DNA from: a virus
Virus record (IMG/VR): IMGVR_UViG_3300025655_000017
Length of the DNA stretch: 64,000 nucleotides
Strand: one strand, 5' to 3'
A model generated the notes under the pieces. The model saw only the letters and a list, made by a program, of their open reading frames with translations. It searched no databases and was not told where the DNA came from. Positions 23,245-44,037 of the stretch are shown here, in pieces. The stretch's first letter is position 1. The number at the start of each line of letters is the position of its first letter. A program made the position numbers and the translations under genes.

Positions 23245-24336
23245 ATGTTATACACATTATTATGCATATTATGTTTTATAAACATAATATGCATTTTTTT
23301 TAATTTTTTATTTTATAAGCGTAATTATTATAAAATAAAAATTATAGATGGAATACAAAAAAACAGTCAGGTTTGCATATACGTTAAAGATAAAAATCAT
23401 AGATTTAATTTTGTAACTGATAATTTTGAAGAATTTGCACCATTATATAACGTGTTTGGATTTACAGATTATGATTTTTTCCCTAAAGACATTGCTGATA
23501 AATTTAGAGAGGGAGACTTACATGTGAGGTCAACACATGAAAGGTTAAATATTATTGATGCATTAGAATTAGGAGATAATGTTTTATATTATAATTCATC
23601 TAAATTTATGATTGATAACGAAAACATGTGTGGTGTAAGCATAGATATAACTAATGAAATTAAAAAAAGTGAAAAGGTACAAGAAACGAATAATTTTTTA
23701 ACTCATATAAATTACATAATAAGACATGATTTATATAACTCAATAAATTTAGTTAATCAGTTTTTTATTAAAATCGAAAAAAAAATTGAAATAGAATATT
23801 TAGAAGAGCATAAAATAATTGGAGCTTTTAAAGCTTTAAAACAATGTATTTTTACTTTAAAAGAAACCTTTCAAGGGATTTGTGATTTTAGTATAATGTT
23901 GGATGATCATAAAAAATTACCTGTTGAAAGTTTTTACTTAAGTGTAATATTAAATGATTTTTTAAAAAAAACCGCTTATTATTCATATGTAGATATAGAT
24001 GAAGAAATGGGAATAATTACAGCAAATAAATCATTGATGATAACGGCTCTTATCAATTTAATAAAAAATGGAATTAAGCACAATAATTCACAAAATAAAA
24101 AAGTAAAAATTTATAAATGTGAGAATGATCTACTTATAGAAGATAATGGGTATGGTATAACAGATGAACAACTTTCTAAATTTATAAAGCCATATTCACA
24201 AGCAAATGATAATGGTGAGGGATTAGGGTTAGGATTATCAATAACAAACCTAATTTTAAAATACCATAATTTAAATTTATCTGCTTTACCTAAAGAAAAC
24301 GGTACTATTTTAGTAATAAAAAATATATTCATATAA
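23245..24336 (+). CDS. Membrane-anchored PAS-domain sensor histidine kinase
   Basis: TM helix, PAS_4-like segment, H-box IRHDL, N-box NLIKNGIKHN, G1 EDNGYGI, G2 GLGLGL. Confidence 0.9.
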   Translation: MLYTLLCILCFINIICIFFNFLFYKRNYYKIKIIDGIQKNSQVCIYVKDKNHRFNFVTDNFEEFAPLYNVFGFTDYDFFPKDIADKFREGDLHVRSTHERLNIIDALELGDNVLYYNSSKFMIDNENMCGVSIDITNEIKKSEKVQETNNFLTHINYIIRHDLYNSINLVNQFFIKIEKKIEIEYLEEHKIIGAFKALKQCIFTLKETFQGICDFSIMLDDHKKLPVESFYLSVILNDFLKKTAYYSYVDIDEEMGIITANKSLMITALINLIKNGIKHNNSQNKKVKIYKCENDLLIEDNGYGITDEQLSKFIKPYSQANDNGEGLGLGLSITNLILKYHNLNLSALPKENGTILVIKNIFI

Positions 24337-24367
24337 TATATTTTTATATTTATATGAAAAAAAAGTT

Positions 24368-24817
24368 TTGATGTTTAGCAACTATAAAATAAAAACACTT
24401 TTATGTGTTGAAGATGATATATTTTATTCATATCTTTTTCAAGATGCAGCAGAAAGTGTAGATTTAGCAATAAAAGTAAAAGCCATTCATTCTTCTGATG
24501 AAGCAGAAGAATGGTTTATTAAATCAAGAAAGCGGGGGGATGTTCCTGATTGTATTTTTGTGGATGTAAATCTTAAAGGGTCTTCTTTTTCTGGGTTAGA
24601 ACTTATAAGAAAAATTAATTTTGAACATGGAAATAACGTTGTTATTGGTGTTATATCAACATCTAATGATGATCAAGAAAAAGCAACAGCAGTAAAAAAT
24701 GGGGCACAATTCTGGATTTTGAAAGACACGTTAGATTTAGAAAAAGTATTAATTGATTTTAAAGATGATTTTATAGGTTTTCAAAACAGATTATTACCAT
24801 TTAAAACCTATAAATAA
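24368..24817 (+). CDS. Single-domain response regulator (REC)
   Basis: VEDD, phospho-acceptor IFVDVNL, STS, conserved K. Confidence 0.9.
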   Translation: MMFSNYKIKTLLCVEDDIFYSYLFQDAAESVDLAIKVKAIHSSDEAEEWFIKSRKRGDVPDCIFVDVNLKGSSFSGLELIRKINFEHGNNVVIGVISTSNDDQEKATAVKNGAQFWILKDTLDLEKVLIDFKDDFIGFQNRLLPFKTYK

Positions 24818-26991: not shown

Positions 26992-27028
26992 AAAAAAACC
27001 CTTTAGTGCAAATTAAAGGGTTTTTTTT
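26992..27028 (+). terminator. Attenuator terminator upstream of tRNA array 1
   Basis: CCCTTTAGT-GCAA-ATTAAAGGG stem-loop followed by T8. Confidence 0.9.
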
Positions 27029-27128
27029 ATGTTCATTGACATAGTTGGATTATTTTAGAAAATATTAACTGAAAAAGGTAGTCAGTCCTTTGGAGTGCAA
27101 ACATTATTGCCACCAGTTGATACATAAA

Positions 27129-27371: not shown

Positions 27372-27445
27372 CTAGATGTAGCTTAAATGAATAAAGCACC
27401 ATGTTTGGGACATGGAAGATGTCAATTTGAGTTTGACCATCTGGA
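27372..27445 (+). tRNA. tRNA-Pro(TGG)
   Basis: Cloverleaf; CCATG-TTTGGGA-CATGG; atypical T loop. Confidence 0.85.
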
Positions 27446-27489
27446 CTTTTTTTGAAAAAGGAATCTCTAACGTATGTCGAAAGAGATAT

Positions 27490-27766
27490 AGGGCTGGCAG
27501 TTAGCCTATTGCAGTTTAAAAATAACTTTTATACGTTTTTTTAAACGCATAAAGAAATTAATATATAACTATTAATTTTCATACTGTTGGAAACCAATGA
27601 TTGCATATGAAAATGTAATCTTGTTTACTAAACACGTTTTTAGTGGTTGCACTGAACCCTTGATTTTTAGTAAAAAATCATAAACAGGCTACAAAGATCA
27701 GTTTATTAAAACTGTCAATAATAACGTTAGGTTAGCTGCCATTGATTAATTTCATAAAAAGCTCCA
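27490..27766 (+). ncRNA. Candidate multi-stem structured ncRNA inside the tRNA array (possibly a derived tmRNA)
   Basis: 27496-27508 pairs with 27728-27740 (13 bp including G-U); 27509-27519 pairs with 27706-27718; several internal hairpins. Confidence 0.55.
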
Positions 27767-27840
27767 CAGGAGTTAGCTCAGTTGGTTAGAGCGTCATCTT
27801 TACATGGTGAATGTCAATGGTTCGATCCCATTACTCTTGT
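27767..27840 (+). tRNA. tRNA-Val(TAC)
   Basis: Cloverleaf; TCATC-TTTACAT-GGTGA. Confidence 0.9.
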
Positions 27841-27852
27841 CATTTTAATTAT

Positions 27853-28015: not shown

Positions 28016-28070
28016 CCCAATTAATTGACTATCAGTGTTTTATGTTATGTCAGTTAATCTTTTACTTTAA

Positions 28071-28150
28071 TACTGAGATACCCCCCTTGACTGATATTCA
28101 AAATAAAGGTAATTGGGTGAAAATATGGATTCGACCCCCATTCTCAGTAC
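28071..28150 (+). pseudogene. Degenerate tRNA-like element
   Basis: TACTGAGA/TCTCAGTA acceptor-like stem and ATGG-ATTCGAC-CCCAT T-arm-like hairpin; no good D or anticodon arm. Confidence 0.45.
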
Positions 28151-28161
28151 TTTTTTTACTA

Positions 28162-28458: not shown

Positions 28459-29184
28459 ATGAAAAAATGGAATTTAGAGGAAACAAATAAATTAAAACTA
28501 TATATAGCTCAAAGAATGAGCTATGAAGAAATTTGTTTAAAAATGAATAGGACTTTTAGTTCGGTTGGTAATAAAGCTAGAAAATTAAATTTAACATATA
28601 ATCCTAAAAAAAGAATTTATCGAAGTTTATACATTTGTCAAAATACAAAATGTGTAAAAACATTTGAAGGATACGTTATAGCTAACCCGAAATATTGTAG
28701 TAGTTCATGTGCTGCCCAAGTAAACAATTTAAATGTTCAAAGAAATAAACAAAAAAAAATAGATTTACCTCCAAAAATAAATAAACAAAAAATAATAACA
28801 CATAGTTTTTGTTTATACTGTAAGGCTGCTAAACATAATATCTATTCAACTTACTGTAGTGTAACATGCTCTAGTGAACATAAGAGAGACATTAAGATTG
28901 GATTATGGTTAAATGGAAAGCACAGTGGACATAAAGGAAAAACTTTACAATTATGTGGTTTTGTAAAATATCATCTGAGAAAAATCAGAGGCACAAAGTG
29001 CTGTCAATGCGGGTGGGATAAAAAACACCCTATAGATGGAGCTACATGTAACCATATAGATCACATTGACGGTGATGCATCTAACAATAAAATAGAAAAT
29101 TTGAGAATATTATGTCCCAACTGTCATTCATTAACAGCAAACTTTGGTTCACGTAACAAAAATTCTGCTAGAAATTTTAATTAA
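28459..29184 (+). CDS. HNH homing endonuclease with N-terminal HTH and Cys-rich zinc ribbons
   Basis: HIDHIDGDASNN..NLRILCPNCH; CSSSC and CSVTC repeats. Confidence 0.9.
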   Translation: MKKWNLEETNKLKLYIAQRMSYEEICLKMNRTFSSVGNKARKLNLTYNPKKRIYRSLYICQNTKCVKTFEGYVIANPKYCSSSCAAQVNNLNVQRNKQKKIDLPPKINKQKIITHSFCLYCKAAKHNIYSTYCSVTCSSEHKRDIKIGLWLNGKHSGHKGKTLQLCGFVKYHLRKIRGTKCCQCGWDKKHPIDGATCNHIDHIDGDASNNKIENLRILCPNCHSLTANFGSRNKNSARNFN

Positions 29185-29599: not shown

Positions 29600-29723
29600 T
29601 CTCCGGTGGCTTAGTTGGTTAAAGCATCCCACTTTCCTGTCCATTTATTAAGACTAATCCGTTTTAGTTTTTTAAAGGCCAAGATTAATGGGAGGATCGT
29701 GGGTTCGAGTCCCACCCGGAGAA
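29600..29723 (+). tRNA. tRNA (probably Lys-TTT) with a 50-nt insertion in the anticodon loop
   Basis: Well-formed acceptor, D and T arms; TCCCA/TGGGA stem encloses 57 nt instead of 7. Confidence 0.75.
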
Positions 29724-29737
29724 CATAAAAGCTAAAT

Positions 29738-30658
29738 ATGTCAAGAAACGTACAACATTCTTTATTGGGAAAAGCTAAGGCTAATAAAAAAGATGAATTT
29801 TATACACAATTTAAAGACATAGAGGGTGAATTAAAACATTATGAACATCATTTTAAAGATAAAATAGTTTATTGTAATTGTGACGATCCTAATGTTAGTA
29901 ATTTTTCAAAATATTTTATTTTAAACTTTGAAAGATTAAAACTAAGAAAATTAATTTCTACTGGGTATAAGAAAGAAGGTAGAGGAGTTGGAAATCTTTA
30001 TAAAAAAGATCAAAATAAAATTATTCGTCTAGAAGGTAATGGAGATTTTAGAAGTGAAGAATGTATTGAATTGTTAAAAGAATCAGATATTGTAGTTACT
30101 AATCCTCCATTTTCTTTGTTTCGTGAATATGTAGGACAATTAATAGAATACAAAAAAAATTTTCTCATTATTGGCAATATAAATGCTCTTACCTATAAAG
30201 ACATTTTTAAGCTTATTAAAAATAATAACGCTTGGATGGGTATTAACATGGGAAGAGGAATCTCAGGGTTTATCGTTCCAGAACATTATGAGCTTTATGG
30301 GACAGAGACTAAAATAGACGATGAAGGAAATAGAATAGTCTCACCTAATAATTGTTTTTGGTTGACAAACTTAGATACATCTAAACGACACGAAGACATC
30401 GTTCTTTCAAAAACATATTATGGATGTGAAAGTGAATATCCAATATATAATAATTATGATGGTATCAATGTAAATAAAACAAAAGATATACCAAGGGATT
30501 ACAGGGGAGCTATGGGTGTACCAATAACATTTCTGCATAAATTTAATCCAGATCAATTTGAAATAATTAAATTTAGAAAGGGAAATGATGAAAAAGATTT
30601 ATCAATAAATGGCAAATGCCCATACTTTAGAATTTTAATTAAAAATAAAAGATTATAA
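29738..30658 (+). CDS. Adenine-specific DNA methyltransferase, EcoRI-MTase family
   Basis: KKDEFYT, VYCNCDDP, GDFRSEEC, VVTNPPFSLFREY, MGVPITF. Confidence 0.9.
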   Translation: MSRNVQHSLLGKAKANKKDEFYTQFKDIEGELKHYEHHFKDKIVYCNCDDPNVSNFSKYFILNFERLKLRKLISTGYKKEGRGVGNLYKKDQNKIIRLEGNGDFRSEECIELLKESDIVVTNPPFSLFREYVGQLIEYKKNFLIIGNINALTYKDIFKLIKNNNAWMGINMGRGISGFIVPEHYELYGTETKIDDEGNRIVSPNNCFWLTNLDTSKRHEDIVLSKTYYGCESEYPIYNNYDGINVNKTKDIPRDYRGAMGVPITFLHKFNPDQFEIIKFRKGNDEKDLSINGKCPYFRILIKNKRL

Positions 30659-31248: not shown

Positions 31249-31301
31249 AAAATTTTTTATAGGTATTTGCTTTTATGCATTTATCTCTGTATCTTTGTAT
31301 T

Positions 31302-31859
31302 ATGGAACAAATAAAATTACAACTTACAACAGGGAATGATAAACAATCACGCAGAGCGTTAGATTTTTATCCTACTCCACCTGAAGCGACTATAGCTTTA
31401 TTGGACTTTCTTAAATTAAAACCTACTACAGTATGGGAGTGTGCTTCTGGAAATGGAGCAATGGTAGATGTGTTAAAACAATATGGTCACGATGTAATAG
31501 CTACAGATATAATAAATGGGGAAGATTATCTTCTCATAAAAAGAGATGCTGATATTATTATCACTAATCCACCATTTAATATATCAGATAAGTTTATAGA
31601 AAAAGCAGTTAATGAATGCTCAATTGTTGCATTTTTGTTAAAAACACAATATTGGCACGCAAAAAAAAGATATAAGCTTTTTAAAAAACATTCACCATCA
31701 TACATTTTACCTTTAACTTGGAGGCCAGACTTCTTATATCAAGAACGAAAAAATGGAGCAAAAGGTTCTCCAACAATGGATGTTAATTGGAATGTTTGGA
31801 TAAAAGGTGATTCAACTACTAAATATTTACCTTTACTAAAACCAAATAACATTTTTTAG
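31302..31859 (+). CDS. Phage amino-methyltransferase (N6-adenine type)
   Basis: DFYPTP, WECASGNG, IITNPPF. Confidence 0.88.
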   Translation: MEQIKLQLTTGNDKQSRRALDFYPTPPEATIALLDFLKLKPTTVWECASGNGAMVDVLKQYGHDVIATDIINGEDYLLIKRDADIIITNPPFNISDKFIEKAVNECSIVAFLLKTQYWHAKKRYKLFKKHSPSYILPLTWRPDFLYQERKNGAKGSPTMDVNWNVWIKGDSTTKYLPLLKPNNIF

Positions 31860-43545: not shown

Positions 43546-43808
43546 ACAATAAAATATTTTTATGAATAAAAATTTTGTTAATACTTATGCAGTAACTGGA
43601 ACATTTCATGGATCAATTGTTATAGCAAATAGTGAAGGAGAAGCAAGAAGAATATTTCATGATTATTATAATGGTGAAAGTATAACAAGCATTTATATAA
43701 AAAATACTTTATGATAATTAAAGAACAATGTTTTTTAGAAAGAATAGTAAAAACTATATGCAATATAATGGACTATTTAAAATATTTAAATAAAAAATTA
43801 GAAAAAGC

Positions 43809-43839
43809 TTGCAAATACAAATAAAAAGACATATATTTG
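43809..43839 (+). promoter_or_regulatory. Host-type promoter for tRNA array 2
   Basis: TTGCA..TATATTTG, followed by CTATTTATA at 43871. Confidence 0.75.
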
Positions 43840-43883
43840 TATTGTAAAACAAAAAAAGAATTTTTTTAAACTATTTATAGGAG

Positions 43884-43967
43884 ATGAAAAATGTAACTGT
43901 ATATTATTATAACTTTAGTTGGTGCTTTTTTTCGGAGGAATCTGAAAAGACACTAGGGGTTATGTAA
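43884..43967 (+). CDS. Putative attenuator leader peptide 2 (MKNVTVYYYNFSWCFFSEESEKTLGVM)
   Basis: 27-codon ORF; ACTAGGGG near its 3' end can pair with CTCCTAGT of the terminator. Confidence 0.75.
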   Translation: MKNVTVYYYNFSWCFFSEESEKTLGVM

Positions 43968-43992
43968 TATAATGTTACAAACAAAGATTTAT

Positions 43993-44037
43993 AAAAATCT
44001 CCTAGTTCAATGTTTTTGAGTTAGGAGATTTTTTTTT
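43993..44037 (+). terminator. Attenuator terminator upstream of tRNA array 2
   Basis: AATCTCCTAGTTCAA-TGTTT-TTGAGTTAGGAGATT stem with T9; tRNA-Glu starts at the next base. Confidence 0.9.

Follow-up and report, generated by a model that had tools for sequence, protein, structure and literature searches.

The 64,000-nucleotide stretch of viral DNA analysed here (the window) spans positions 29786-93785 of a virus contig of 132.8 kb from IMG/VR, with a GC content of about 28% and a completeness rating of 42%. Its major capsid protein is of the gp23 type (PF07068); the best relative of this protein among 5.8 billion proteins lies on a 2-kb contig and is 55% identical, and the identity drops to 33-42% for relatives on long contigs. 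Because the capsid is of the gp23 type and its best relatives are this distant, the sequence points to an uncultured, isolated T4-like giant phage. Directly after the capsid gene lie a histidine kinase gene (PAS and HATPase_c domains) and a stand-alone receiver-domain gene (23245-24817, plus strand), and the receiver gene and the 195-aa gene that follows it stay together in a distant relative (JGI 3300009086).

A block of plus-strand tRNA genes, predicted by ARAGORN in the order Asp, Leu, Pro, Val, Asp, Ala, Gly, Arg and Gln, contains a gap of 320 nt between tRNA-Pro(UGG) (27372-27446) and tRNA-Val(UAC) (27767-27841), both of which are also recognized by Rfam. This gap is the longest spacer of the array; the remaining spacers measure 5, 80, 11, 12, 142, 12 and 10 nt, five of these seven being only 5-12 nt long. 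Downstream of the block, and still within the tRNA array, come an HNH endonuclease gene (28459-29184), two open reading frames resembling EcoRI-type adenine methyltransferases (29738-30658 and 31275-31859; all on the plus strand) and further tRNAs. This arrangement is reminiscent of the tRNA cluster of T4, which contains segB, and of the tRNA region of T5 with its hegA, hegC and hegD. One further tRNA (29600-29723, plus strand), not called by ARAGORN, is matched by Rfam with 56.5 bits over 124 nt and carries a self-folding insert of approximately 50 nt in its anticodon loop. Between tRNA-Ala and tRNA-Gly, a spacer of 142 nt (28020-28161, plus strand) contains an acceptor-like helix of 8 bp (ACUGAGA.../...UCUCAGU) along with half of a T arm (GGAUUCGACCCCC); it is called a tRNA by neither ARAGORN nor Rfam, folds no better than chance (z = -1.3), and is probably a broken tRNA gene. 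In a second tRNA cluster (Lys ... Glu, Phe), a 490-nt gap (43548-44037, plus strand) ranks third in folding among 828 windows of the contig and holds small open reading frames and a terminator-like hairpin ahead of tRNA-Glu.

The spacer between tRNA-Pro and tRNA-Val (27447-27766, plus strand), delimited by ARAGORN, an ORF scan and folding, is free of open reading frames and represents the maximal RNA that tRNA processing would release, the 3' maturation of tRNA-Pro setting its 5' limit and the RNase P cut at the 5' end of tRNA-Val its 3' limit. A small open reading frame was rejected as an explanation of the spacer, as no stop-free frame within the 320-nt gap exceeds 38 codons. Neither a promoter match nor a terminator was found within it, and an internal T4 late promoter was rejected as well, the motif TATAAATA being absent near the spacer RNA. 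The nearest upstream sigma-70-like promoter match (TTGACA-16-GAAAAT; 27036-27063, plus strand) lies just behind a terminator (26992-27027) and is the likely start of a transcript carrying the tRNAs and the spacer RNA. Following RNase P cleavage at tRNA-Val, the 3' end of the spacer would read ...GCUCCA, although this terminal CCA may be a coincidence.

A preliminary description of the locus proposed that a highly paired non-coding RNA lies between the two tRNAs, and the folding analysis bears this out. The plus strand of the spacer reaches a minimum free energy (MFE) of -79.8 kcal/mol, better than any of 100 dinucleotide shuffles (z = -5.71); for the 247-nt core (27495-27741) the z score is -6.45, with none of 200 shuffles as good. 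The minus strand is weaker by 12 kcal/mol (-67.8 kcal/mol, z = -4.1). Among 828 overlapping 320-nt windows of the contig, the gap ranks fourth by GC-corrected MFE. Furthermore, when uninterrupted helices spanning 60-400 nt were ranked on both strands of the 132.8-kb contig, the helix that closes the core (P1, -22.1 kcal/mol) took first place among 3295 plus-strand and 2996 minus-strand helices; the plus-strand runner-up, at -18.1 kcal/mol, reflects nothing more than the similarity of two tRNA T arms. Because the gap ranks so highly and P1 is the top helix of the whole contig, the fold differs from ordinary AT-rich background. The well-defined helices contain G.U pairs, two in P1 and one each in P3 and P5, and since all four would be A.C mismatches on the opposite strand, the predicted fold would belong to the tRNA (plus) strand. 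The GC content of the core (27.9%) equals that of the genome (28.1%), whereas the phage's own tRNAs reach 38-60%, and RNAC and RNAD of T4 have 43% and 49%, respectively, against 35% for the T4 locus.

In the predicted structure, whose elements all lie on the plus strand, P1 pairs 27495-27508 (UGGCAGUUAGCCUA) with 27728-27741 (UAGGUUAGCUGCCA) over 14 bp, two of them G.U, at a mean pairing probability (P) of 0.96. The preliminary description had reported this long-range helix at 27496-27508/27728-27740, and it proves to be real. Within P1, the P2 arm (27510-27549) is built of UGC/GCA, GUUUAAAAA/UUUUUAAAC and AAC/GUU (P 0.83-0.91). The 5' strand of P2 may instead lengthen P1 by pairing with 27706-27718, at a cost of 3.5 kcal/mol; a second long-range helix at 27509-27519/27706-27718, which had also been described, is thus absent from the MFE structure and persists as a near-optimal alternative, which the two occurrences of CAGUUU bring into competition with P2 and P8. 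P3 is a 10-bp hairpin (27554-27579, GAAAUUAAUA/UAUUAAUUUU, P 0.90), P4 a short and uncertain one (GUUGG/CCAAU, 27586-27598, P 0.39), and P5 an 8-bp hairpin including its one G.U pair (27599-27620, GAUUGCAU/AUGUAAUC, P 0.99). P6 (UACUAAA/UUUAGUG, 27626-27645) is poorly defined, with a P of 0.15 and a different pairing in the centroid structure. The P7 arm (27646-27692) has an irregular basal stem whose base-pair probabilities are 0.14-0.21, a hairpin of 8 bp carried on it (27661-27680, UGAUUUUU/AAAAAUCA, P 0.93), and the GC-richest unpaired stretch, GCACUGAACCCUUGA. P8 (27696-27716) comprises GA, CAGUUU/AAACUG and UC (P 0.86-0.93). Of the hairpins named at the outset, AAATTAATA/TATTAATTT (P 0.90) and TGATTTTT/AAAAATCA (P 0.93) are recovered; ATACGTTT/AAACGCAT contains an A.C mismatch, and the MFE structure uses GUUUAAAAA/UUUUUAAAC in its place.

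Outside P1, the 5' flank (27462-27492) forms a small hairpin with possible outer pairings to 27744-27764, all of them isoenergetic alternatives with P 0.3-0.5. Pairing GGGCU (27491-27495) with AGCUC (27760-27764) yields -79.4 kcal/mol, a cost of 0.4 kcal/mol relative to the MFE. As a result of such options all 27 consecutive nucleotides of 27491-27517 can pair with 3' segments (5 bp in the outer part, 14 bp in P1, and 3 plus 6 bp in the inner part), these pairings being near-isoenergetic alternatives rather than one structure. Perfect AU-rich palindromes make up most of the stems, and GNRA and UNCG tetraloops are absent from the loops. The energy model is the source of the seven- to eight-way junction, which is more typical of such output than of solved RNAs; within it, P4, P6 and the basal part of P7 are poorly defined.

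Relatives of the spacer RNA were sought by several routes. Searching 50,697 phage records by blastn in distant mode gave no homologue, and 80 related IMG/VR loci retrieved via the capsid gene all lack a tRNA within 10 kb of it. A covariance model built from the single sequence of the spacer RNA (R1; self-score 297 bits) found nothing in 49 whole related virus records and had no match in related phages' tRNA arrays (searched with filters off), in the loci of neighbouring genes, or in the tRNA regions of T4 and T5. A degenerate DNA pattern built around the gap of 223 nt matched 4 viral sequences and at least 119 from metagenomes, all of which R1 marks as chance. Flanking-tRNA patterns, internal 19-mers and scans of genome contigs revealed no relative, and a sequence look-up detected no shared sequence words outside this genome. 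No second copy of the spacer occurs in 185,579 species genomes or in IMG/VR, and the contig holds no paralogue; a 33-nt antisense match to contig positions 18534-18565 (E = 0.01) was set aside as no better than that of random contig segments. Homologues of an 88-aa gene (50-61% identity) and of a 200-aa gene (at most 32%) either have a different genomic context or sit on contigs of insufficient length. Because no homologue was found, the fold stands without covariation support.

Exact-protein look-up recovered the same phage from more than ten samples and at least 10 independent assemblies (Logan, JGI and ENA), and each contig that reaches across the spacer RNA matches the window at 100% identity; for this reason there is no sequence variation to analyse, which is the principal weakness of the argument. 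The contigs L212-L225, equivalent to window positions 19241-39507, show 100% identity, with L213 having one mismatch in 13.9 kb. An HNH variant contig, 99.6% identical, stops short of the spacer RNA. Judging from these sequences, the phage population appears strikingly clonal and widespread, while even the closest relative of its capsid protein shares just 55% identity. In a related phage contig (G019) with a 24-tRNA array, two ORF-poor spacers (L207:1445-1875 and L207:7907-8216, both minus strand) fold well, with z scores of about -4.1 and -4.9 (30 shuffles), and have no match in Rfam; possibly they represent additional array-associated RNAs that are as yet unclassified.

Several known identities were considered for the spacer. 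ROOL and GOLLD, which the preliminary description had raised as RNAs of similar location, were dismissed, as there is no Rfam match at E<=10 and the spacer RNA, at 247-320 nt, is far smaller. YrlA/Y RNA was rejected on the absence of an RF02553 match in the spacer and of a TROVE (Ro60) gene in the contig, which is 42% complete, and a group I intron in a tRNA gene on the absence of any intron or partial-tRNA match at E<=10 in 27447-27766 and of flanking tRNA halves. The more specific suggestion had been a highly derived tmRNA, and a number of features invite it, or invite the reading as some other aminoacylatable tRNA-like RNA: GGGCU and AGCUC can pair, with one G.U, at almost no energy cost; RNase P would leave a ...CCA end; the frame ...VNNNVRLAAID*, ending in Asp, is indeed present at 27684-27749; and a related phage has a tmRNA beside its tRNAs. 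Against this, ARAGORN predicts no tmRNA in the window or in the whole contig, and Rfam, applied to the plus strand of the spacer, gives no match to the tmRNA clan (RF00023 and the permuted forms) or to any other family, either at the gathering threshold or at E<=10. The preliminary description had itself remarked on the lack of a canonical T arm, and none with a GGUUCGAAUCC-type loop exists on the plus strand of 27447-27766. Its comparison of the ends with an Ala/tmRNA acceptor carrying G3-U70 holds insofar as GGGCU/AGCUC can form, but this gives 5 pairs where 7 are needed, with the G.U at 2:71, reaching 3:70 only if pair 1:72 is allowed to be an A.C mismatch; the 3' end is ...UCCA rather than ACCA, and the discriminator spacing is improper. 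The last third of the supposed tag frame forms the 3' strand of P1, and the frame ends in Asp, whereas a tag would be expected in a single-stranded or pseudoknot-flanked context and with a hydrophobic C-terminus. On sequence grounds, a tmRNA was therefore rejected for the absence of model matches, of a T arm, of a 7-bp acceptor stem and of a suitable tag context.

A positive control came from the related T4-like contig IMGVR_UViG_3300025127_000022 (G026), in which RF00023 detects a canonical tmRNA (L210:220-628, minus strand; 120 bits, E = 1.6e-46), missed by ARAGORN, directly after three tRNA genes. It begins with 5' GGGGAUG, has a tag ending in ...VAVA-stop and a T arm GGGGGUUCGAAUCCCCC, and encodes its CCA in a 3' CCACCA. 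Because this copy is fully canonical and easily detected, drift of the lineage offers no excuse for a derived form; phages of this group would seem to keep their tmRNA canonical, and a highly derived one is not a natural expectation. We consider the probability of a derived tmRNA or tRNA-like RNA at this locus to be close to nil.

Three further readings were weighed. According to one, the spacer is a relic or neutral sequence, a decaying insert, perhaps left by a mobile element, a lost gene or an intron, and its RNA is discarded during tRNA processing. The background-level GC content of the core and its perfect, AU-rich stems are what this would predict, as is the lack of a paralogue in the contig and of a homologue in any collection searched; additionally, the array takes up mobile DNA, as the HNH endonuclease and the methyltransferases show, and holds the wreckage of a tRNA in another spacer (28020-28161). 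A z score of -6.5 and the best long-range helix of 132.8 kb are, however, unexpected for decaying sequence, the G.U bias favours the transcribed strand, and no remnant of a tRNA, an intron or another Rfam family appears at E<=10. We view a relic as a serious contender that is nevertheless rather unlikely. Another reading makes the spacer a purely cis-acting processing module, its terminal stem (P1 with its extensions) resembling the leader-trailer stalk of rRNA or a T7 RNase III site and separating Asp, Leu and Pro, upstream in the tRNA precursor, from the downstream tRNAs (Val through Gln), with the enclosed hairpins having no role of their own. The mid-operon position and the 27 consecutive pairable nucleotides at 27491-27517 fit such a module, but a processing site needs no well-folded interior of approximately 220 nt, and the tRNA-processing enzymes alone would separate the flanking tRNAs, so that we hold this to be distinctly improbable. 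Finally, the element might act as DNA, either as a MITE with 14-bp terminal inverted repeats or as an AT-rich palindromic site of replication or recombination. The inverted repeat does match at 12 of 14 positions in the DNA, and the AT-rich interior contains several perfect palindromes; yet both mismatches of the repeat become G.U pairs on the transcribed strand, its ends lack a target-site duplication, and there is no second copy in the contig, the 185,579 species genomes or IMG/VR. On the missing duplication and the missing second copy in the contig a MITE was rejected, and a DNA-level element of either kind is very improbable.

The leading reading, that the spacer encodes a discrete, structured and functional candidate non-coding RNA measuring between 247 nt (the core) and 320 nt, is consistent with the structure signal, the strand bias, the position among tRNA genes and the absence of both an open reading frame and a known family. 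The preliminary description had offered, as its other option, an RNA unrelated to tmRNA that is associated with the tRNA array; this fits all of the findings, and with neither a homologue nor sequence variation it keeps the standing of a candidate. Given the background GC content, the perfect AU-rich palindromes and the model-derived seven- to eight-way junction, we regard the case for a functional RNA as evenly balanced.

The transcription, processing, stability and any trans role that we infer for this candidate RNA would proceed as follows. The plus strand would be co-transcribed with the tRNA polycistron from a start near 27036-27063, and the spacer RNA would be released by RNase P at the 5' end of tRNA-Val and by 3' maturation of tRNA-Pro, while an endonuclease such as RNase III might cut in the extended terminal stem as well. 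The 14 bp of P1 could be lengthened outward by GGGCU/AGCUC or inward by 27509-27519/27706-27718. P1 would shield both ends of the molecule, allowing a stable RNA species with five to seven hairpin arms to accumulate. As to a role in trans, binding or sequestering a host or phage protein of RNA metabolism or translation would be a guess. A bolder and quite doubtful proposal is that this RNA would be the first representative of a novel class, namely helix-closed phage RNAs of about 250 nt that are cut from tRNA operons and have a trans function of their own; by analogy, and again as a guess, such a function might be the titration of a host RNA-binding protein or nuclease, or an RNA-only assembly of the kind formed by ROOL, GOLLD and manA RNAs.

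As a single-sequence prediction, the spacer RNA has its value as a candidate and not as a discovery. Its 14-bp closing helix and well-defined arms would make it an easy construct for structure probing, nuclease assays and cryo-EM. ROOL and GOLLD demonstrate that tRNA-adjacent RNAs can be remarkable molecules, and another, unrelated example from a widespread giant phage would support the idea that phage tRNA operons serve as general launch sites for structured RNAs.

Among known systems, ROOL RNAs are about 500-600 nt long, and the folds of ROOL and GOLLD are pseudoknotted and supported by covariation. The spacer RNA resembles them as a structured phage RNA beside tRNAs and differs from them in its length of 247-320 nt and its lack of an Rfam match; any tertiary features of its own would be putative. 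ROOL and GOLLD are structured RNAs of phages and prophages that often lie by tRNA islands and have no known function, and many GOLLD RNAs exceed 800 nt (PMC12286853). With tmRNA (RF00023; the copy in G026) the spacer RNA shares a place beside tRNAs in a T4-like jumbo phage and a size of a few hundred nucleotides, but it fails the tmRNA models and has no T arm, 7-bp acceptor with G3.U70, encoded ACCA or tag-frame context. The RNase III stalks, namely the leader-trailer helices of rRNA and the T7 early sites, likewise bring together distant segments that enclose a folded part of a polycistronic RNA; unlike these, the uninterrupted helix of the spacer measures just 14 bp, its extensions are interrupted, and its cleavage is hypothetical.

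The closest parallels are with the experimentally established stable non-tRNA RNAs of T4 and T5, which have been known for some fifty years. In T4, the 119-nt RNAD (species 2) and the 139-nt RNAC (species 1) directly follow tRNA-Arg in a cluster that contains the homing endonuclease gene segB, and together they fold, over 264 nt, with a z score of -4.1. The spacer RNA is comparable to them as a non-tRNA RNA adjoining tRNAs in a T4-type phage cluster. RNAC, however, keeps a tRNA-type T arm (CCGGGUUCGAAUCCCGG) where the spacer RNA has none, both T4 RNAs are GC-enriched (43-49% against 35%) while the spacer RNA is not, and they sit at the end of their cluster rather than inside the array. Homology was not detected, as blastn gave no match in the phage collection, which includes T4, and R1 found nothing in the T4 locus. 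Reviews still list the roles of RNAC and RNAD as unknown (PMC3014915, PMC9697503), and the stable non-tRNA RNAs of T4 and T5 as a group continue to be annotated or reviewed without a known function (PMC3014915).

In the T5 tRNA region (GenBank AY543070), features annotated as misc_RNA, "stable RNA with unknown functions", lie among tRNA genes and three HNH endonuclease genes. When RNAIII (106 nt), RNAIV (103 nt) and RNA2H (172 nt) of this region are folded, the ends of each pair in a terminal helix of 9-12 bp that encloses two or three hairpin arms. The spacer RNA has the same plan in that it lies between tRNA genes, is closed by a terminal helix and has an HNH gene in its region; at 247-320 nt and with five to seven arms it is larger than the T5 RNAs, with which it shares no similarity by sequence or by covariance model, and whereas they are annotated as stable species it is a predicted one. 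Because the T5 RNAs share this plan and this kind of locus on a smaller scale, we favour reading the spacer as a helix-closed, co-transcribed cassette. By analogy, then, its setting would correspond to that of RNAC and RNAD of T4 and its architecture to that of RNAIII, RNAIV and RNA2H of T5, with no known sequence family, and it would fit a T5-type helix-closed class that is architectural and not a sequence family. Structured RNAs in phage tRNA regions are already known; what is new here is a sequence-orphan and unusually large member.
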